Assembly: GCA_964444095.1 (NCBI GenBank)
Contig: CAYUEW010000002.1
Location: forward strand, 1 to 39,298
Source of the DNA: Candidatus Woesearchaeota archaeon
GTDB lineage: Archaea; Nanobdellota; Nanobdellia; Pacearchaeales; GW2011-AR1
DNA length: 39,298 bases
Reading direction: 5' to 3'
Positions 2,460 to 30,017 of this stretch are shown here, piece after piece; within the stretch, counting starts at the first letter, position 1, and every line of letters begins with the position of its first letter. The notes beneath the pieces are model-generated. The model ran no database searches. It saw only the letters and a list, made by a program, of their open reading frames with translations, and had not been told where the DNA came from. Made by a program: the position numbers and the translations under genes.

Positions 2460-3581
2460 ATGACAAAGAAAATGTCTGTGAATCCTTATGCTGTTGAAGG
2501 GAGTGTAGATTATAGTCGATTGGTGAAAGAATTTGGTTTAGAAAGAATTGATGATAAACTTCTTAAGCGAATAAAAAAACACACTGGCGAGATTCATCCT
2601 ATGCTTACACGAGGAATTATGTTCGCGCATAGAGACCTAAATTGGTTATTGGATGAATACGAAAAAGGAAATAAATTCTTTTTGTATACTGGTTGTGGAC
2701 CTTCTGGACCAATTCACTTGGGGCATCTACAAATGTGGTATTTTACAAAATGGTTGCAAGATAAATTCAATGTAGATTTGTATTTCCAGTTCACTGACGA
2801 TGAAAAATTCTTATACAAAGATTCATCTTATGAGGAAATCCAAAAATGGACAGAAGAAAATATGTTGGATGTTATTGCGGTGGGATTCAATCCGAAAAAG
2901 ACTCATTTTATTATTGACACAAAACATGCGGGGATACTTTATCCAGAAGCAATTAAAATCGCGAAAAAAATAACTTTCTCCACAATAAAAGCCAGCTTTG
3001 GTTTTACAGATAGCAATAACATAGGGAGCATTTTTTATACCTCAATGCAGGCGGTTCCTGCGATTCTTCCTTCTGTTTTGAAAGGCAAAAATATTCCTTG
3101 TCTAATTCCCCTAGGAGTTGATCAAGACCCCCATTTTAGAATCGCAAGAGATGTTTATCCAAAATTGGGATTTTACAAACCAGCAATAATGCATAAAATT
3201 ATGTTTCCTTCATTGACAGGGATGAATAATGTAATGAGCAGCTCAAAAGATTCAGTTATAATAACAGCAAGGGATTCTCCCAAGGAAGTTAAAAACAAGA
3301 TAAACAAATATGCTTTTTCAGGGGGGAGGGATACACTTGAAGAACACAAGAAACTAGGAGGAAATCCAGATGTTGATATTTCTTTCCAATATTTGAAATC
3401 CTTTTTTGAAGAAGATGAAAAAAAACTAGCACAGATTGAAAAAGATTATCGTACAGGAAAGTTAACTACTGGAGACCTAAAGAAATACACAATCGAAAAA
3501 ATAACCGAATTCCTTCAACAGCATCAAGAAAGAAGAAAAAAAGCAAAAGGAAAAATAAAAGATTTCATTCTAAAAATATAA
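2460..3581 (+). CDS. trpS: Tryptophanyl-tRNA synthetase (archaeal/eukaryotic type)
   Basis: The HIGH region is GCGPSGPIHLGH. The FQFTDDEKFLYK motif is typical of arch/euk TrpRS. The KMSKS-like loop reads NVMSSSKDS. Length is 373 aa. Confidence 0.85.
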   Translation: MTKKMSVNPYAVEGSVDYSRLVKEFGLERIDDKLLKRIKKHTGEIHPMLTRGIMFAHRDLNWLLDEYEKGNKFFLYTGCGPSGPIHLGHLQMWYFTKWLQDKFNVDLYFQFTDDEKFLYKDSSYEEIQKWTEENMLDVIAVGFNPKKTHFIIDTKHAGILYPEAIKIAKKITFSTIKASFGFTDSNNIGSIFYTSMQAVPAILPSVLKGKNIPCLIPLGVDQDPHFRIARDVYPKLGFYKPAIMHKIMFPSLTGMNNVMSSSKDSVIITARDSPKEVKNKINKYAFSGGRDTLEEHKKLGGNPDVDISFQYLKSFFEEDEKKLAQIEKDYRTGKLTTGDLKKYTIEKITEFLQQHQERRKKAKGKIKDFILKI

Positions 3582-3593
3582 TTTTTCTTAAAA

Positions 3594-4439
3594 TTATCCT
3601 GCTCCCCCACCAATTAGATTTGCAACAGAGGAGACTATGAAAGAGAGTAGGATTAAAGCAAAAGAATGTTTTATCCCAGATTTGATAGTTCCTTCTGATA
3701 ATTTTCCAATAGCTAATCCTGTGAAAAAACCTTGGAATAAAAGTAAATATAAAAATGCACTAGAAATTTCTTCACTTCCTATAGAACTTCCCGCAGTTGA
3801 AATATTTGCAACACCTAATGCTCCAACATCTGCAATTCCAGAAATCATTGGAACAATATAAAATTGCATAATCAAAACTATCACAAGAAAAACAAAGAAG
3901 ATAATATACCCTTGTGCAATTAATGTTGAAATTGTAGATTTCCTCTCTTTCTTTAATTTGTCAGACATACTAACTGCTCTTGCTACTGCTTCAAGAATTT
4001 CACCAATATCTCCTCCCGCCCTCTCTGCTTGACCAATCAAAGTCAATGAACGAGAAATATTTTTATTGCCCACATCTTTTGCAAAAACTTTTAGTGCAGT
4101 ATTTAATGGAATTCCTAATGAAATTTGGTTTGCTAATTTATCAACATTCTGACTCAAAACTCCATAAGATTTCCCTTTCATATTTATCAAACTTTTACTA
4201 ATTGGAGTTCCTGTTTTTACACTTTCTACAAGGTTTCTTGCAAATTCTAAGAACATATCTTCTTTTTCACTTGCAATTTTTGATTCAGCCATCACAGAAA
4301 GAACAAAAGGAGAAGCCCCGAGAATTATTCCCAATCCAATCAAAAAAAGAAAAAACCGAGTATTCAATAATAAAAATGAAAGAGCAACAATAACTCCTCC
4401 AGCAATCATTCCAACATAGTGTATTTTTTTTAATTCCAT
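3594..4439 (-). CDS. Pilus platform membrane protein, single T2SSF domain (TadC/FlaJ-like)
   Basis: The layout is N-terminal TM helices, then a cytoplasmic T2SSF-like core (LEFARNLVESVKTGTPISKSL..LGIPLNTALKVFAKDV..IGQAERAGGDIGEIL), then C-terminal TMs. It sits 1 nt from the upstream platform gene. Confidence 0.7.
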   Translation of the reverse strand: MELKKIHYVGMIAGGVIVALSFLLLNTRFFLFLIGLGIILGASPFVLSVMAESKIASEKEDMFLEFARNLVESVKTGTPISKSLINMKGKSYGVLSQNVDKLANQISLGIPLNTALKVFAKDVGNKNISRSLTLIGQAERAGGDIGEILEAVARAVSMSDKLKKERKSTISTLIAQGYIIFFVFLVIVLIMQFYIVPMISGIADVGALGVANISTAGSSIGSEEISSAFLYLLLFQGFFTGLAIGKLSEGTIKSGIKHSFALILLSFIVSSVANLIGGGAG

Positions 4440-9161: not shown

Positions 9162-10229
9162 TTAAGCATAAGGAACACAACAACAATAACTTTGAGGAGA
9201 AGAGCAATATTGGTCCCCTGTTGATTCACATGTACCACTACAAGACCCCCCACAATTTAGTGCACAACTTGAGAGAGAATCATCGTAACCCAAAGAAGCA
9301 CAAAGACTCTTACAAGAATCAACAGTAATAATTAAACTACATCCTCCAACACCATCTGATTCATATCCTGCAGAACATGTACAATCTTCTTGACAATTAG
9401 AACCCCCGTCACAATCTTCTCCAGAATCAAGTTCTCCATTTCCACAAAGGAGGACACAAGTTCCGGTAATACACTCTTCTGTGGTAAGGCAAATTCCACA
9501 ATTTTCTCCACAGATTGTTCCACACTCATATCCTGTGTCTGTACAAGTATCTAGGCATTCTTCGACACATTGTCCTTCTCCATCACATTCTTCTCCTTCT
9601 ACAGAACAATCTGGGCAATCTATGTTTCCAATACAACCATCTGACCAAGTTCCACATTCATATCCTAAACTCACACAAGTTCCAGGTACACATGTTTCCC
9701 AAGAACTCAAAACTTCTTCAATTCGTGCACCCCCACAACTTGCAAATCTTGTTTTTCCTTCTATATCTTGAAATCGAACAGGAATAATCTCAACTTTGTA
9801 AATCGTTCCAACATCTGTGAAAACTGTTTTCATTACTTCGTTAGGAGCTAATGCATTTTCTCCAGCTAAAAATATAATTGAATGGCTATACTTTATCCAA
9901 GAAGAATCTTCAGAAAGACTTTCGCTTAAATCCTCTGTGGCAAGCTCTTGGTCCTCGTCAATTGTTGCATGTATAAAATATCCTGCGACACTGAATAGTC
10001 CATTATTTTTTATTGTAATGTTTAAGTTATCTGTATCACTATTATATGTCGCTTCTTGCATGAATACTGAAACGCCGTCAGGACATTCAATTGCATCCTT
10101 TGGAACATATGTCTTGATGAGTTGATAAACAACCATGCTCATAACTAAAGCAATTCCTACTAACAACACATATCCAATCATAATGCTCAATCCTTTTTTA
10201 TCCTGTAACAATGTATTTTTCTCCTTCAA
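9162..10229 (-). CDS. Type IV pilin N-domain fused to a C-terminal cysteine-rich module
   Basis: The N-terminus is DKKG/LSIMIGYVLLVGIALVMSMVVYQ. The C-terminal ~180 aa contain dozens of Cys in CxxC/CxC/CG patterns, including LCGNGELDSGEDCDGGSNCQEDC, which resembles the CGxGxxxxGEECD cysteine-rich repeat. Confidence 0.65.
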   Translation of the reverse strand: MKEKNTLLQDKKGLSIMIGYVLLVGIALVMSMVVYQLIKTYVPKDAIECPDGVSVFMQEATYNSDTDNLNITIKNNGLFSVAGYFIHATIDEDQELATEDLSESLSEDSSWIKYSHSIIFLAGENALAPNEVMKTVFTDVGTIYKVEIIPVRFQDIEGKTRFASCGGARIEEVLSSWETCVPGTCVSLGYECGTWSDGCIGNIDCPDCSVEGEECDGEGQCVEECLDTCTDTGYECGTICGENCGICLTTEECITGTCVLLCGNGELDSGEDCDGGSNCQEDCTCSAGYESDGVGGCSLIITVDSCKSLCASLGYDDSLSSCALNCGGSCSGTCESTGDQYCSSPQSYCCCVPYA

Positions 10230-17305: not shown

Positions 17306-17457
17306 ATAATGTGGGAGACAACTCATCTCCAGAGAAGTCGTTATGAATAAAATATTTGTCGCTTCTCTAAAAGCTCGGGATTCGAAAACCTGCTTAGCAC
17401 AAAAATAGATTTGAATTTAAGCGACTTTGCAATTCTCAAAGAATTTAAATCCTGTCT
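17306..17457. repeat. tRNA-Leu-derived fragments in the tRNA-Leu 3' flank
   Basis: Three pieces are present. 17306-17320 (ataatgtgggagaca) resembles the tRNA 3' end plus flank at 17467-17482. 17378-17400 (ggattcgaaaacctgcttagcac) resembles the T-arm/variable arm at 17483-17507. 17448-17457 (aatcctgtct) is the exact reverse complement of 17478-17487. Confidence 0.55.
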
Positions 17458-17471
17458 AGCGACAGAATAAA

Positions 17472-17555
17472 TGCGGGAGACAGGATTCGAACCTGCGTAG
17501 GCACTAAGCCACAGCCTCTTAAGGGCTGCCCATTTGGCCACTCTGGAACCCCCGC
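17472..17555 (-). tRNA. tRNA-Leu (anticodon UAA), type II
   Basis: The hand fold is GCGGGGG-TT-CCA..TGG-G-CAGCC-CTTAAGA-GGCTG, then a 15-nt variable arm, then GCAGG-TTCGAAT-CCTGT-CTCCCGC-A. Length is 84 nt. Confidence 0.85.
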
Positions 17556-17600
17556 TTGAGTAATCTTTTGAATAGAATTCTACTTAAAAATTTAACTAAA

Positions 17601-17828
17601 TTATTTCTTTTTCTCTATTTTCACACCAAGTTCTTCAAGGCGTTTGATATGTGCTTGCATAACAGCTTCTACATTCTGAATCATTTTGAACAATTCATTT
17701 CGCTCATTAACTAAAGTGTTAAGCGCACCTTGATGAAAACCAATTTCTGTCTCTTTTGAAACCGCAGGAGTTTCTGGCGCTTTGTTATTCAATGCTTCCT
17801 CGAGATTTGATTTATCTATATTTGTCAT
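17601..17828 (-). CDS. Small hypothetical coiled-coil protein (75 aa)
   Basis: A clean ORF between two tRNA genes with plausible composition and no recognisable motif. Confidence 0.45.
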   Translation of the reverse strand: MTNIDKSNLEEALNNKAPETPAVSKETEIGFHQGALNTLVNERNELFKMIQNVEAVMQAHIKRLEELGVKIEKKK

Positions 17829-17874
17829 ATTATTATGTATAAAACTCTCTTATAAAGTTTTGCAAGCCTCAGAC

Positions 17875-17946
17875 AAGATTTGAACTTGCGACCTTTTCAT
17901 TACGAGTGAAATGCTCTACCACTGAGCTACTGAGGCAGGATTTTGC
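17875..17946 (-). tRNA. tRNA-Thr (anticodon CGU)
   Basis: The hand fold is GCCTCAG-TA-GCTC-AGTGGTA-GAGC-A-TTTCA-CTCGTAA-TGAAA-AGGTC-GCAAG-TTCAAAT-CTTGT-CTGAGGC-T. Length is 72 nt. Confidence 0.85.
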
Positions 17947-17947
17947 T

Positions 17948-18015
17948 CAGGGGTTCGAAGCTTGTCTTCGAGAGCGAAGCGAACTACCACTGAGCTACTG
18001 AGGCATTACGCGAAT
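17948..18015 (-). repeat. Terminus-duplication module at tRNA-Thr: 46-nt spacer plus exact 22-nt copy of the tRNA 5' end
   Basis: 17994-18015 is identical to 17926-17947 (ctaccactgagctactgaggca). The spacer 17948-17993 carries gctcag (17955-17960), the inverse of ctgagc inside the repeat. Read as RNA the unit looks like a collapsed tRNA: a CTTCG-CTCT-CGAAG stem with a 4-nt loop and no anticodon. Confidence 0.6.
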
Positions 18016-18022
18016 GCCTTAT

Positions 18023-18319
18023 TTATTTTTCCTTAGCAGAAAACAATAAACACATACAATGTCCTTCAAGTTCTATTTCTCCCCGATGGAATACACAAGG
18101 GCAGACAATCTCTTTATCTTTCTTTTTATCTCCTGTGGCAACACGGCACGGGCAATAAATATCTCCTTTTGTCTGTTTATTTTTCAACAATCCTGTTATG
18201 ACTCCATCAACAATTTTTTCGTCAGGATTCAATCTTATTCCAACTTCTTGCGCATATTTCTCTGCACTTTTCTTTAAATCTTCTGGGTTCTTGGATTTAA
18301 ATTTTTGTCCTATTTTCAT
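18023..18319 (-). CDS. Ferredoxin:thioredoxin reductase catalytic-subunit-like protein
   Basis: The Cys pattern CPCR-x16-CPC-x-F-H-x10-GHCMCLLF matches the FTR beta-chain CPC..CPC..CHC signature. Length is 98 aa. Confidence 0.7.
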   Translation of the reverse strand: MKIGQKFKSKNPEDLKKSAEKYAQEVGIRLNPDEKIVDGVITGLLKNKQTKGDIYCPCRVATGDKKKDKEIVCPCVFHRGEIELEGHCMCLLFSAKEK

Positions 18320-20153: not shown

Positions 20154-20606
20154 ATGGTTCAAACAAAAAAGATGAATGAATCTTTCTTTGCACAACTTTT
20201 AAAAGATTTTAATGTTGTTGGAGAAGTGATTAGGGCGCGTCAAGACGAGAAACAAGGGCTGCTAAATCAGTTTGATAGTGAATGCAAAAGATTTTTCTTC
20301 GGTAAAATTTCTGAAAAAGCTTTAGTGTCTTCGGTTCAAAAAACTAACAAAGAACTTCAGCGATTAGATTCTGAAATAAGAGCAAATATATCTCGAGCAA
20401 GAAGAATATCAGAGAAGGCTGCAAGGCTTACTTCGGCACAAGCACCCCACGCTTTTAGAGCAACACTTTCCGGAATAATCGGAGGAGATAAAAAGAAAAA
20501 AGTTGTAAGGAAAAAACCTGTAGCAAAAAAGAAAGTTGTAAGAAAAGCTCCTAAGAAAAAAGTTGCAAAGAAGACTTCAAAAAAGAAAACTACGAGGAAA
20601 AAATAA
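20154..20606 (+). CDS. Hypothetical protein with Lys-rich H1-like C-terminal tail
   Basis: A GGAGG Shine-Dalgarno lies upstream. The layout is a helical N-domain followed by a roughly 40-aa tail, KKKKVVRKKPVAKKKVVRKAPKKKVAKKTSKKKTTRKK. Confidence 0.55.
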   Translation: MVQTKKMNESFFAQLLKDFNVVGEVIRARQDEKQGLLNQFDSECKRFFFGKISEKALVSSVQKTNKELQRLDSEIRANISRARRISEKAARLTSAQAPHAFRATLSGIIGGDKKKKVVRKKPVAKKKVVRKAPKKKVAKKTSKKKTTRKK

Positions 20607-20960: not shown

Positions 20961-21027
20961 TTATTTAACAGGTTTCATATCTTCCGGCAATTTGTTCCTA
21001 AAATTATAGCGGATATGAAAATAATTC
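20961..21027. repeat. Terminus-duplication module at the TrmB-family gene 3' end: exact 23-nt copy plus 44-nt spacer
   Basis: 20961-20983 is identical to 21028-21050 (ttatttaacaggtttcatatctt, the stop codon plus the last 7 codons of the gene). The spacer carries gatatgaaa (21012-21020), the exact inverse of tttcatatc inside the repeat. Confidence 0.6.
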
Positions 21028-21834
21028 TTATTTAACAGGTTTCATATCTTTCCATGCAAGTTCAAATAATTGTTCTAATGCTTGAGCAAAGAATTCAGTA
21101 TTCACCCAAACACCCACATCATAATTTGGATGAAACTTTTCATCATCAAGCAACATGAACATCACTTGATTTGAATCAATAATAATAAATCTTGCTTTCA
21201 TTCCTTCAAGTTTTCTAACATCTGCAACTTTCTTAAAATCTTTTGCAACCTTAAGATTATTCGCATCAACAGGAGCAGCAATTCTAACCTTTACGCCTCT
21301 TTTTTTACATCCTTCTAAACTCCCCATTAATGTTTCAAGTTTTCTATTCAAACCTTCATTTGTTGTTACAATTGTTACAGATTTTTCTGCGTCTCTTACC
21401 ATCATATCTATATGATTATACAAATTTTGTCTTCCTTTCAAACTTCCAGATAAATCTGAAGGTTCAACAAATTTAATTCCTTTAGTAAAAAGAGAATTTA
21501 ATTCTTCTAAAACTTCGTCGTCTTTTAATTTATCTAATCTCTCTGCTTTTTCTTTTGCATGTCTTACTAAATTCTTTTTTACACGTTCAACAACTTCTCC
21601 TGGTTTTAATGCTATGAATTTTATTGGTTTTCCAAGTTTCATAATCACAAATCCTTTTTTCTCTAAACTTTCTAAGATATCATAAGTCCTACTTCGAGGA
21701 ACATCAGAAATATTGCTTAATTCTCCTGCAGTGCTCGTTCCTCTTGAAAGAAGCGCAGTCCAAACTTTTACTTCATATAAATTTAAATCAAAAATTTTTC
21801 TCAGCCTGCTCAAAAATTCTTCCTTGACAATCAT
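21028..21834 (-). CDS. TrmB-family transcriptional regulator
   Basis: The N-terminal winged helix reads YEVKVWTALLSRGTSTAGELSNISDVPRSRTYDILESLEKKGFV. A C-terminal effector-like domain follows. Length is 268 aa. Confidence 0.8.
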   Translation of the reverse strand: MIVKEEFLSRLRKIFDLNLYEVKVWTALLSRGTSTAGELSNISDVPRSRTYDILESLEKKGFVIMKLGKPIKFIALKPGEVVERVKKNLVRHAKEKAERLDKLKDDEVLEELNSLFTKGIKFVEPSDLSGSLKGRQNLYNHIDMMVRDAEKSVTIVTTNEGLNRKLETLMGSLEGCKKRGVKVRIAAPVDANNLKVAKDFKKVADVRKLEGMKARFIIIDSNQVMFMLLDDEKFHPNYDVGVWVNTEFFAQALEQLFELAWKDMKPVK

Positions 21835-29074: not shown

Positions 29075-29574
29075 TTATTGACTTTTTGTTAATAATTTTA
29101 ATCCTTCTAAAATAGATTTGGCATCTGAAAGTGCATTGTGGGCTTTCTTTTTGTTTTTTACTCCAAATCCCCCTATTATCGTTCCACTACTGAATTTGTT
29201 AACATCGATCCCCTTATTTTTGAAAATTTTTCTGACATCATAAAACTTTTTTATTGGTTTTGATTTTAATTTATCTAAAATTTTTATTTCTCCAGATTTC
29301 TTTTCTTCTCTTCTTTTTGTCTAATCTCTTTTGCTACCTTTAATAATAACTCGTCTAAATTTTTCCTCAATCTTCCTGTTTCTATTAATTTGCACTTTTC
29401 GCTTGGAGGTCCAGATAAAGACGGAATTTGCACGCAATATATAATAGAATATTCTTTTTCATTTTTAAGATAATATATTTCCCCAAGATATTTTGAATAT
29501 TTTTCAGTGGTCTCTAAATGGTAAGTCTTTTCATCCCATTTTTTTAGTTTCACTTTGATTTTTTTTTGTTTCAT
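29075..29574 (-). pseudogene. DEDDh (DnaQ-like) 3'-5' exonuclease gene split by a frameshift
   Basis: Frame A (29284-29574) carries an Exo I-like YHLETTEK..GEIYYL, with His where Asp is expected. A different frame with no start codon (29078 to about 29300) reads ..KKFYDVRKIF.. (Exo II-like) and ..KAHNALSDAKSILEGLKLL..* (Exo III H-x4-D). The frames switch in an A-rich run at about 29285-29300. Confidence 0.5.
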
Positions 29575-29645
29575 AAAAAAGTAACTAAAAAATACTTTTT
29601 AACCGTTTATGTTTTTAAACATATATTTTTAAGATTATGGTTTTA

Positions 29646-29724
29646 AACGCTCAGAGCAGGAACCTGTGAAACAGGTCCTTGTGCCCTCCTTGGGGTATCG
29701 AACAATAATGGGTTCGATTAAAAA
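29646..29724 (-). repeat. Degenerate tRNA-Ser 3'-half-like fragment immediately downstream of tRNA-Ser
   Basis: The minus strand ..ATACCCCAAGGAGGGCAC..CACAGGTTCCTGCTCTGAGCG parallels the tRNA-Ser variable arm (ACCCTTCGGGGTAC) and its T-arm/acceptor (GCAGGTTCGATTCCTGCTCTGGGCG), with a 5-nt loop deletion. No 5' half is present. Confidence 0.45.
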
Positions 29725-29805
29725 CGCCCAGAGCAGGAATCGAACCTGCGTACCCCGAAGGGTCCGGCTTAGCAAGCCGGTGCAATACCATTATGCGATC
29801 TGGGC
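29725..29805 (-). tRNA. tRNA-Ser (anticodon GCU), type II
   Basis: The hand fold is GCCCAGA-TC-GCAT-AATGGTA-TTGC-A-CCGGC-TTGCTAA-GCCGG, then a 14-nt variable arm, then GCAGG-TTCGATT-CCTGC-TCTGGGC-G. Length is 81 nt. Confidence 0.85.
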
Positions 29806-29809
29806 ATAT

Positions 29810-29872
29810 GTTCCAATCGCATTCGTTTATTGAACGAGAGGGATTTATCCCGACTATGCGATCTGGGCATAT
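29810..29872 (-). repeat. Terminus-duplication module at tRNA-Ser: 45-nt spacer plus exact 18-nt copy of the tRNA 5' end
   Basis: 29855-29872 is identical to 29792-29809 (tatgcgatctgggcatat). The spacer carries ccaatcgcat (29813-29822), the inverse of atgcgat..gg inside the repeat. It also has an internal GGGAT-AA-ATCCC hairpin. Confidence 0.6.
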
Positions 29873-29918
29873 TCTTATAGAAATAAAATCCTTTTAAATA
29901 TTACTCTAAAACAAAAAA

Positions 29919-29994
29919 TAGCGAGGGCGGGATTTGAACCACGCGACCTCCGGGTTATGGGCCCGACGAGCACTCCAGGCTGCTCCACCTCGCT
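29919..29994 (-). tRNA. Initiator tRNA-Met (anticodon CAU)
   Basis: There is an A1:U72 pair (AGCGAGG/CCTCGCT). Three G:C pairs close the anticodon stem (GGG/CCC). The loop is CCCATAA. The T-arm is GCG(T)GG-TTCAAAT-CCCGC with one bulged base in my fold. Confidence 0.8.
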
Positions 29995-30017
29995 ATAATA
30001 AGTCCATCAAAATTAAA

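Follow-up and report, generated by a model that had tools for sequence, protein, structure and literature searches.

Duplicated gene termini at tRNA genes and a TrmB-family gene of a Pacearchaeota lineage: possible insertion scars with fold-back filler

The stretch of DNA analyzed here, referred to as the window, is the 39,298-nucleotide contig CAYUEW010000002.1 of a Candidatus Woesearchaeota archaeon, whose closest named relatives are metagenome-assembled genomes of Candidatus Pacearchaeota. It is AT-rich (G+C ~32%) and carries four tRNA genes, all on the minus strand (ARAGORN; Rfam): tRNA-Leu(TAA) (17472-17555), an intact tRNA-Thr(CGT) (17865-17936; 74.8 bits with the Rfam tRNA model), an intact tRNA-Ser(GCT) (29725-29805) and tRNA-Met (29919-29994). 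At the 5' ends of tRNA-Thr and tRNA-Ser and at the 3' end of a TrmB-family gene, the gene terminus is present a second time at a short distance, and the spacer between the two copies contains an inverted piece of the gene. We refer to these units, likewise on the minus strand, as modules A (tRNA-Thr), B (TrmB) and C (tRNA-Ser). They are a real, non-random and inherited feature, which we tentatively read as scars of insertions that duplicated their target. For comparison, syntenic loci in relatives were reached through ArgRS (65-84% identity), RNase HII (82-86%) and patatin; loci labelled L001 onward are the fetched contigs and syntenic loci that were compared with the window.

Module A is built on an exact 22-nt repeat (CTACCACTGAGCTACTGAGGCA; period 68) that spans nucleotides 1-21 of tRNA-Thr(CGT) and one leader base. 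The genuine, gene-contiguous copy lies at 17916-17937 and the extra, promoter-proximal copy at 17984-18005. An earlier description of the window, made from the letters alone (the sequence-only reading), had put them at 17926-17947 and 17994-18015; these segments are not identical, and the true repeat lies about 10 nt away, but the repeat itself and its 46-nt spacer exist as described. The spacer (17938-17983) is G+C-rich, contains several small palindromes and has no AT box. Its inverted piece (GCTCAGGGGT, GCTCAG(GGGT); 17945-17954) is complementary to 17918-27 in the D-arm region and stands 7 nt from the genuine copy, the distance given in the sequence-only reading. A second inverted piece (17953-17967) is complementary at 13 of 15 positions to the tRNA-Thr T-arm (17871-17885), outside the repeat (p = 0.007).

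On its outer side, the extra copy of module A contributes one arm to a small hairpin read from the sequence (GGCATT-ACGCG-AATGCC, 18002-18018). Next to it, some 15-30 nt upstream of the extra copy, lies the only AT-rich box near tRNA-Thr, the TATA-like AAAAATAAATAA (minus strand) at 18020-18034, which overlaps the FeThRed_B stop codon and, judged against the upstream regions of other tRNAs, is the candidate tRNA-Thr promoter. FeThRed_B (18023-18319), whose last codons overlap this box, has 98 aa, and its nearest homolog outside its own population is only 74% identical. In L016 and L022, the FeThRed_B and 75-aa genes are just 43-46 nt apart, with no tRNA-Thr between them; the whole cassette of ~160 nt, consisting of extra copy, spacer and tRNA-Thr, is therefore specific to the window lineage. 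Two metagenome contigs (the end of L003, 3334-3336, and the end of L006) break off within the extra copy of module A. One such contig runs on as GCTCAGTGG-CTA instead of -TAG, a different tRNA-like sequence, which suggests either that a variant co-occurs or that the assembly graph is tangled with another tRNA.

Module C, at tRNA-Ser(GCT), has an exact repeat of 18 nt with a period of 63. Its genuine copy (29792-29809) covers tRNA-Ser nucleotides -4 to +14, and its extra copy (29855-29872) abuts the conserved tRNA-Ser promoter, the TATA-like box of which (TATTTAAAA) lies at 29892-29900. The 45-nt spacer (29810-29854) forms two small hairpins and harbors the inverted piece CCAATCGCAT at 29813-29822. 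Here, the antisense similarity is gapped and covers tRNA-Ser nucleotides about 3-27, again reaching past the repeat (p = 0.07), and a palindrome, CATATG, is centered at the leader. The sequence-only reading had described the inverted pieces as copies of the same terminus that is duplicated. They are indeed present in all three modules, but since those of A and C extend into gene sequence outside the repeat, the inverted piece was copied locally and not imported.

The 3' end of the same tRNA-Ser carries a fourth, imperfect module (29647-29740), which was absent from the earlier list: 29721-29740 recurs at 29647-29666 with 18 of 20 bases matching (period 74). Its spacer combines an antisense T-loop 9-mer (29711-29719) adjoining the tRNA, a sense T-loop piece and a conserved motif, here called motif M (29671-29694). 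Motif M comprises ~35 nt, (T)ACCCAAGGAGGGCACRAGRACC followed by a hairpin with a covarying stem (CCUGU/ACAGG, CCUGC/GCAGG, CCUU/AAGG, CCUC/GAGG), and recurs in L022 (3089-3108, 3144-3163), L029 (7341-7360, 8028-8047), L031 (9149-9168), L032 (1665-1684; the same sequence as L031) and L036 (~4050-4090). It was found only within extra tRNA fragments, and its insertion points are the repeat boundaries: between positions 14 and 15 in the D-loop of displaced tRNA-Ser 5' halves, and between 59 and 60 in the T-loop of extra tRNA-Ser 3' copies; one tRNA-Leu 3' module contains it twice. Motif M has no match in Rfam and none in IMG/VR. We rejected it as a bulge-helix-bulge (BHB) intron, as no BHB motif that would restore the tRNA is present.

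Module B lies at the 3' end of the TrmB-family gene (open reading frame (ORF) 21028-21834), which is intact and still reads to the same stop codon. Its exact 23-nt repeat (period 67) ends precisely at this codon: the genuine copy (21028-21050) consists of the last 20 nt of the coding sequence plus the stop codon, and the extra copy (20961-20983) lies downstream of the gene. Within the 44-nt spacer (20984-21027), the inverted piece GATATGAAA occupies 21012-21020. The inverted part is the reverse complement of the repeat less 7 nt, and a palindrome, AAATAA-GAA-TTATTT, is centered directly past the stop codon. Also in this region, the 3' end of a 150-aa ORF (20154-20606) contains three 20-mers like AAGAAAAAAGTTGTAAGGAA (20493-20572; spacing 33 and 27 nt), which probably represent a lysine-rich peptide repeat.

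The three modules thus share the architecture proposed in the sequence-only reading, namely extra copy, ~30 nt, inverted piece, 3-7 nt and genuine terminus, and the dimensions it gave for tRNA-Ser (18 nt, spacer 45) and TrmB (23 nt, spacer 44) were confirmed, as was the dissimilarity of the spacers to each other. Its view that chance hardly explains the repeats and inverted elements is borne out by two results. In an exhaustive scan of the whole window for exact direct repeats spaced 20-1000 nt apart, modules A, B and C are the three longest, and the next is a 17-nt string of A and T only. Compared with shuffled sequences, the inverted piece beside the gene-contiguous copy has p = 0.125 in A, 0.024 in C and 0.008 in B, which combine by Fisher's method to ~0.002; over eight modules, some of them homologous, the combined p is 4e-6. 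The inverted piece is found in small modules and not in large ones. The near-constant spacer length of 44-46 nt, in turn, holds for modules A, B and C but not for related ones, where spacers measure 47 and ~53-58 nt in small modules and 102, 115 and 130 nt in larger ones, and the constancy may partly be a coincidence. More regular are the repeat boundaries, which are non-random: in tRNA modules, the inner ones fall into tRNA loops (D-loop, between positions 14 and 15, 15 and 16, or 21 and 22; T-loop, between 54 and 55 or 59 and 60), and the outer ones of the tRNA modules and of module B lie 0-4 nt from the gene end or at the stop codon. An assembly artefact was considered and ruled out: modules A and B recur with 100% identity in independent assemblies of different samples (JGI, ENA and Logan), on at least 10 contigs.

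Further instances, whose existence the sequence-only reading had left to be checked, are thus present at the tRNA-Ser 3' end in the window, and also at tRNA-Leu and tRNA-Ser ends in relatives. The L022 tRNA-Leu has a 21-nt duplication of its 3' end (period 136, spacer 115 nt), the L036 tRNA-Ser one of 17 nt (period 70) and the L037 tRNA-Ser(GGA) one of 13 nt (period 115, spacer 102 nt). The L016 tRNA-Leu has a 15-nt 5' duplication (period 145, spacer 130 nt), which stands behind the promoter that directly precedes the uninterrupted tRNA-Leu of the window. A homolog of module C is found in L029, where the repeat ATATGCCTCGATCGCATA occurs twice around a 47-nt spacer that is 81% identical to that of the window.

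Equally informative are sites without a module. In L033, the same tRNA-Ser promoter, with the same box and spacing, directly abuts a plain tRNA-Ser that has neither a 5' nor a 3' module, and the tRNA-Ser of L035 is likewise plain. The alignment locates the junction: TATTTAAAAGGATTTTATTTCTATAAGAATAT, GCCCAGATCGCATA and then the spacer in the window correspond to TGTTTAAAAGTAATTTATTTCTATAATGAATAT, GCCCTGATCGCATA and then ATGG in L033, the promoter being common up to ATAT/GCCC. The 3' end of the TrmB gene has no module in L022, L017, L020 and L018, where unrelated AT-rich DNA comes next. A degenerate module B in L016 lacks support (candidate extra copy, p = 0.24; marginal spacer similarity, p = 0.04), and a search for other module C orthologs through patatin homologs yielded distant loci only, which have no such module and bear other tRNA-end duplications. 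As had been noted from the sequence, the spacers of the tRNA modules contain no AT-rich promoter box; the boxes sit beyond the extra copies, on their upstream side. Here and in L016, the neighbor of the promoter is the extra copy; in uninterrupted relatives, it is the tRNA itself. Because the promoter stays with the extra copy, the modules are very probably transcribed as leaders, which supports the earlier proposal that they are part of the precursor transcript.

The same boundaries also flank larger inserts. In L029, ~590 nt further upstream, the ancestral promoter precedes a third copy of the tRNA-Ser 5' end, and a DUF3795 ORF and a second promoter come next; a 576-nt insert with this ORF lies between two tRNA-Ser 5'-end copies, upstream of the module C homolog. 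In L031, a 285-aa ORF separates a displaced tRNA-Ser 5' half from a different, complete tRNA-Ser. When the window is aligned with L029, the conserved block runs exactly from the outer end of the 5' extra copy to the outer end of the 3' extra copy, and the flanks are unrelated. Gene ends of this Pacearchaeota lineage, tRNA ends above all, are therefore recombination hot spots.

Between tRNA-Met and tRNA-Ser, the DNA forms a variable island in its own right, with ~110 nt in the window (29806-29916) and 1-3 kb with different ORFs in the relatives compared (L033, 5606-6703; L029; L031; L035; L036). A 337-354-aa ORF there harbors the tRNA-Ser promoter within its 3' end; this ORF is truncated in L031, and only the promoter is left in the window. 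Other tRNA loci of the relatives show peculiarities of a different kind. The L022 tRNA-Leu (~3225-3275) and the L031 tRNA-Met (~9430-9480) have inserts of 49 and 45 nt, respectively, at the canonical position 37/38; their BHB is only of the relaxed type (central helix 3/4, no inner helix), and ARAGORN misses both genes. Downstream of tRNA-Leu, a ~70-nt element with UUCG-capped hairpins (GTAGGAGG...CTTCGG...CTCCTACAC) occurs twice in L020 (2393-2443, 2577-2627) and once in L022 (~2930-2990); a small structured RNA is possible. In L037, orphan tRNA fragments lie beside the patatin gene (1390-1420 and 2385-2405), including a T-arm/acceptor 3' piece with no tRNA attached (GGGATTCCTGGCGTGGGCG), and a copy of the tRNA-Ser(AGA) T-arm (14 of 16 bases) is found ~70 nt upstream of tRNA-Ser(AGA).

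Two sets of facts have to be reconciled. One is typical of target-duplicating insertion: boundaries that coincide with tRNA loops and gene ends, tandem copies that carry ORFs, sites left empty in relatives, and synteny breaks at the repeat edges. The other is typical of fold-back priming: a tiny, gene-free spacer, inverted local gene sequence at the junction with the intact gene, and many small palindromes in the spacers. For this reason, we prefer a reading in two steps, in which target-duplicating insertion at recombination hot spots left the modules as scars, filled by snap-back synthesis and, where the target is a tRNA, transcribed together with it as a structured leader; we consider it a good possibility and advance it tentatively. 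A break or recombination event within the first or last ~20 nt of a gene, presumably the work of an enzyme, would leave the terminal segment present twice. One copy would keep to the intact gene and the other to the old flank, i.e. the tRNA promoter or the DNA downstream of the TrmB-family gene, with 44-46 bp of cargo-less filler in between. The inverted filler by the intact gene would arise when a DNA end folds back, primes synthesis (snap-back) and is then rejoined. The duplication itself would resemble that of attachment (att) sites or a target-site duplication (TSD), produced by an insertion that was later lost imprecisely, or by an abortive event that never had cargo. Because the same boundaries flank ORF inserts and gene order changes there, the small modules can be read as products of the hot-spot process, that is, as minimal or cargo-less outcomes of what also produced the larger ORF-carrying inserts. 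The scar would be tolerated since the gene is left whole, and in the tRNA modules it would add a leader of 63-68 nt, with a hairpin of extra copy and inverted piece, presumably cut off by RNase P. Of the three explanations offered in the sequence-only reading, a footprint of insertion and excision and a hairpin-primed repair duplication agree best with the data, possibly as two halves of a single process; for the third, a processing or regulatory structure, only the concerted evolution in one relative speaks, as discussed below.

The closest known kind of event is the partial duplication of tRNA ends by integrative elements. Viruses, plasmids and islands of archaea and bacteria that use tyrosine integrases leave partial tRNA-gene duplications behind and engage in 'gene capture', a general pattern that was reportedly laid out by Williams in 2002 and by She and colleagues in 2001. 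As in attL and attR, direct repeats of a gene terminus flank an insert next to an intact gene, tRNA genes and a protein gene, at its 3' end, are targeted, the inner boundary falls into a tRNA loop, and tandem arrays, empty sites and variable islands occur in relatives. Unlike such elements, however, the inserts here have only 44-46 bp and no integrase or other gene, contain an inverted copy of the terminus and hit 5' ends as often as 3' ends, and no element bearing a matching attP was found for the modules in IMG/VR. The filler has counterparts in eukaryotic excision and repair footprints, which are known from P nucleotides, hairpin ends of the hAT and V(D)J type, polymerase-theta-type end joining and duplication-inverted triplication-duplication rearrangements (DUP-TRP/INV-DUP). 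They share the inverted copy of the flank at the junction, the retention of both target copies and a palindrome-rich filler, but the duplications there have 2-10 nt or the rearrangements are on the kb scale, and part of the filler in our modules is untemplated. We know of no such fold-back process described for DPANN archaea, and a narrow search of the literature found no description of such modules.

A number of observations weigh against the reading as insertion scars. Neither an integrase nor a transposase nor Cas1 was found among the 20 window proteins scanned, and IMG/VR holds no element-borne copies of the repeats or of motif M: the matches of the module A repeat are ordinary phage tRNA genes, and the repeats of modules B and C and motif M gave nothing relevant. 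The inserts of 0.6-1 kb in relatives contain one ORF each and no integrase. The 44-46 bp between the copies are not what a conservative tyrosine integrase would leave between att sites, which is why a second step, the imprecise loss, has to be invoked, and a circle of 63-68 bp is not plausible as a substrate. Each spacer can be traced to nearby sequence over only about one third to one half of its length, which leaves ~16-30 nt without a template; no donor or other copy of the spacers was found in the window or in loci L001-L036, and a known mobile repeat was rejected on this ground. These bases may have diverged, to judge from the 81% spacer identity between window and L029. No ortholog of module A was found among FeThRed_B homologs, the nearest of which is the 74% identical one mentioned above. 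Finally, the copies at tRNA-Ser have changed in concert. In L029, the tRNA-Ser acceptor stem is altered at two base pairs, the same changes are present in all three 5' and both 3' copies, and the inverted piece has changed so as to keep pairing with the altered copies. The extra copies are identical to the tRNA-Ser in both the window and the L029 lineages despite the 81% identity of the spacer, and the 3' spacer of the fourth module is 98% identical between the two, more than tRNA-Ser itself (94%), which hints at a function. The concerted change requires frequent short-tract gene conversion or selection, neither of which a neutral scar predicts.

Among the competing explanations, a purely local error of replication or repair, free of any mobile DNA, is possible, albeit rather unlikely in our view. 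A fork or break at a highly transcribed, structure-prone gene end would be followed by template switching or fold-back priming, giving a sense copy, an antisense copy and the sense gene, i.e. a miniature version of a duplication/inverted-triplication/duplication. This accounts well for the sense-antisense-sense order and for the antisense part that reaches past the repeat, for the palindromes centered at gene boundaries (CATATG in C, AAATAA-GAA-TTATTT in B), the abundance of small hairpins in the spacers and the restriction of the inverted piece to small modules. It also accounts for the way in which the inverted piece follows the local tRNA sequence of each lineage (AATCGAACC vs ATTCGAAC). 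What it leaves unexplained are the ORF inserts bounded by the same repeat, the synteny breaks at the repeat edges and the coincidence of outer boundaries with gene ends, and a local template is missing for about half of each spacer.

The concerted changes in L029 lead to a different alternative, in which extra copy and inverted piece form a selected leader or trailer hairpin that controls how the neighboring tRNA or mRNA folds, how it is processed or how stable it is; the hairpin might, for instance, hold the antisense piece off the 5' strand of the real tRNA. Because gene conversion or selection is required there, this explanation stays alive, even if we regard it as unlikely. Consistent with it, leader C (z = -3.5), the whole pre-tRNA-Ser (z = -5.2) and leader A (z = -2.6) fold better than shuffled sequences, the extra copy repeats the two acceptor-stem changes while the inverted piece compensates for them, and the extra copies have stayed identical to the tRNA next to a spacer at 81%. 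However, module B folds no better than shuffles (z = +0.24), the three spacers have no common sequence or fold and no Rfam matches, and close relatives manage without a module (L033, L035 and the four TrmB loci). Moreover, the covariation comes from two sequences and could reflect gene conversion.

An undescribed system acting on DPANN gene termini, of which the modules would be products or parts, is doubtful as well; room for it is given by the concerted change of five copies in L029, the 98% conservation of the 3' spacer and the position of motif M, with its covarying hairpin, at the repeat boundaries. It could be of the cut-and-paste or integrase-like kind, with a target duplication of 18-23 nt and a self-templated hairpin footprint, a 'TSD - footprint - TSD' state of the sort that was predicted for casposons but is not known to have been observed. 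Alternatively, the modules might be selected sense-antisense decoy hairpins, held identical to the gene, which would offer integrating DNA a sacrificial landing pad or guard the folding of the pre-tRNA.

The repeat-spacer-repeat anatomy with a period of 63-68 nt also brings to mind a Cas1-type integrase acting off-target, be it a casposase or the CRISPR adaptation machinery, which would insert a duplex of ~45 bp and duplicate a ruler-defined target of 18-23 bp. Spontaneous 'neo-CRISPR' units that arise from off-target spacer integration share this anatomy, with a period of ~65 nt. For casposons, the target duplications have 14-35 nt, and tRNA genes, intergenic DNA and one protein-coding gene are among the targets (PMC4779613); their excision was predicted to yield a 'TSD - footprint - TSD' product, but in M. 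mazei it leaves a single clean target site (PMC10359463). The modules are similar in their long duplications (18-23 nt) and in their tRNA and protein-coding targets. They differ from casposons in the absence of terminal inverted repeats (neither end of a spacer recurs inverted at the other), and no cas1 was found among the scanned window proteins (~50 kb of genome examined). From neo-CRISPR units they differ in that the repeats are specific to each locus, the spacer comes from the target gene, one module is conserved between lineages and no cas genes were seen. Given, in addition, that the three repeats are unrelated and of different lengths (18, 22 and 23 nt) and that antisense copies of the target gene are unlike random prespacers, we consider a Cas1-type origin very improbable. 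A CRISPR-like unit proper was rejected: the repeats are unrelated and occur exactly twice each, the spacers derive partly from the target gene, and no CRISPR family reaches the Rfam gathering score in the window. The sole Rfam CRISPR-repeat match, obtained when 17440-18060 and 29560-30010 were rescanned, lies outside the modules and is at chance level (13.5 bits, E = 6.4).

Decay of a tandem paralog, in which the upstream unit is the remnant of a second tRNA or duplicated gene end, is more improbable still and largely refuted. The upstream unit of module A does show a tRNA-like order, with the 5' strand, a TTCGAA-like loop and CTGAGC in the place of the 3' acceptor strand. Yet the Rfam tRNA model does not recognize the upstream units even at E <= 10, the spacers do not resemble the part of the gene that lies beyond the repeat (p = 0.3-0.5), and 18-23 exact bases next to unrecognizable sequence are not what neutral decay leaves. 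Furthermore, module B adjoins a protein gene, and relatives have no second tRNA; at the site of tRNA-Thr, where the sequence-only reading had named this decay as a possible refutation, comparison with the orthologous loci shows none.

Least probable of all, and largely refuted, is a non-canonical intron or split gene in which the extra copy would be the true 5' exon and the archaeal splicing endonuclease would remove 63-68 nt. In its favor are the position of the promoter next to the extra copy, the archease and RtcB genes at or beside the left end of the window, and the inserts at position 37/38 of tRNA-Leu and tRNA-Met in relatives. Against it, modules A, B and C have no BHB at any gene-restoring register, none of them combining a central with a flanking helix, while the positive controls (L031 tRNA-Met, L022 tRNA-Leu) reach H 3/4 with h 5-6 in the same register-restricted test, an unrestricted BHB scan stays at chance level, and the downstream copies are complete, high-scoring tRNAs.

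Around the modules, the window encodes archaeal housekeeping proteins, namely ArgRS, IleRS, the TrmB-family regulator, RNase HII, SMC and EF-1alpha; archease is the first complete gene at its left end, and RtcB follows just beyond. A 64-kb contig from JGI metagenome 3300005918 is near-identical to the window, leaving ~1.7 kb of it uncovered, and in an additional 10 kb beyond the window neither a tRNA nor a module was found.

Taken together, the modules are best classed as insertion or repair scars that duplicate gene termini, with a function being possible. Already at the level of annotation, they matter as partial tRNA copies next to real tRNAs. If they are kept by selection, they would represent a new kind of cis element, a sense-antisense copy of a gene end. 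If our reading as insertion scars is true, tRNAs tolerate structured leaders of 60-70 nt built from their own sequence, and recombination is active in these tiny symbiotic archaea at tRNA and gene ends, where past insertions are kept as compact, datable scars. To our knowledge, few mobile elements and integrases have been described from DPANN genomes, and such scars would then offer a handle on the movement of gene cassettes in them.

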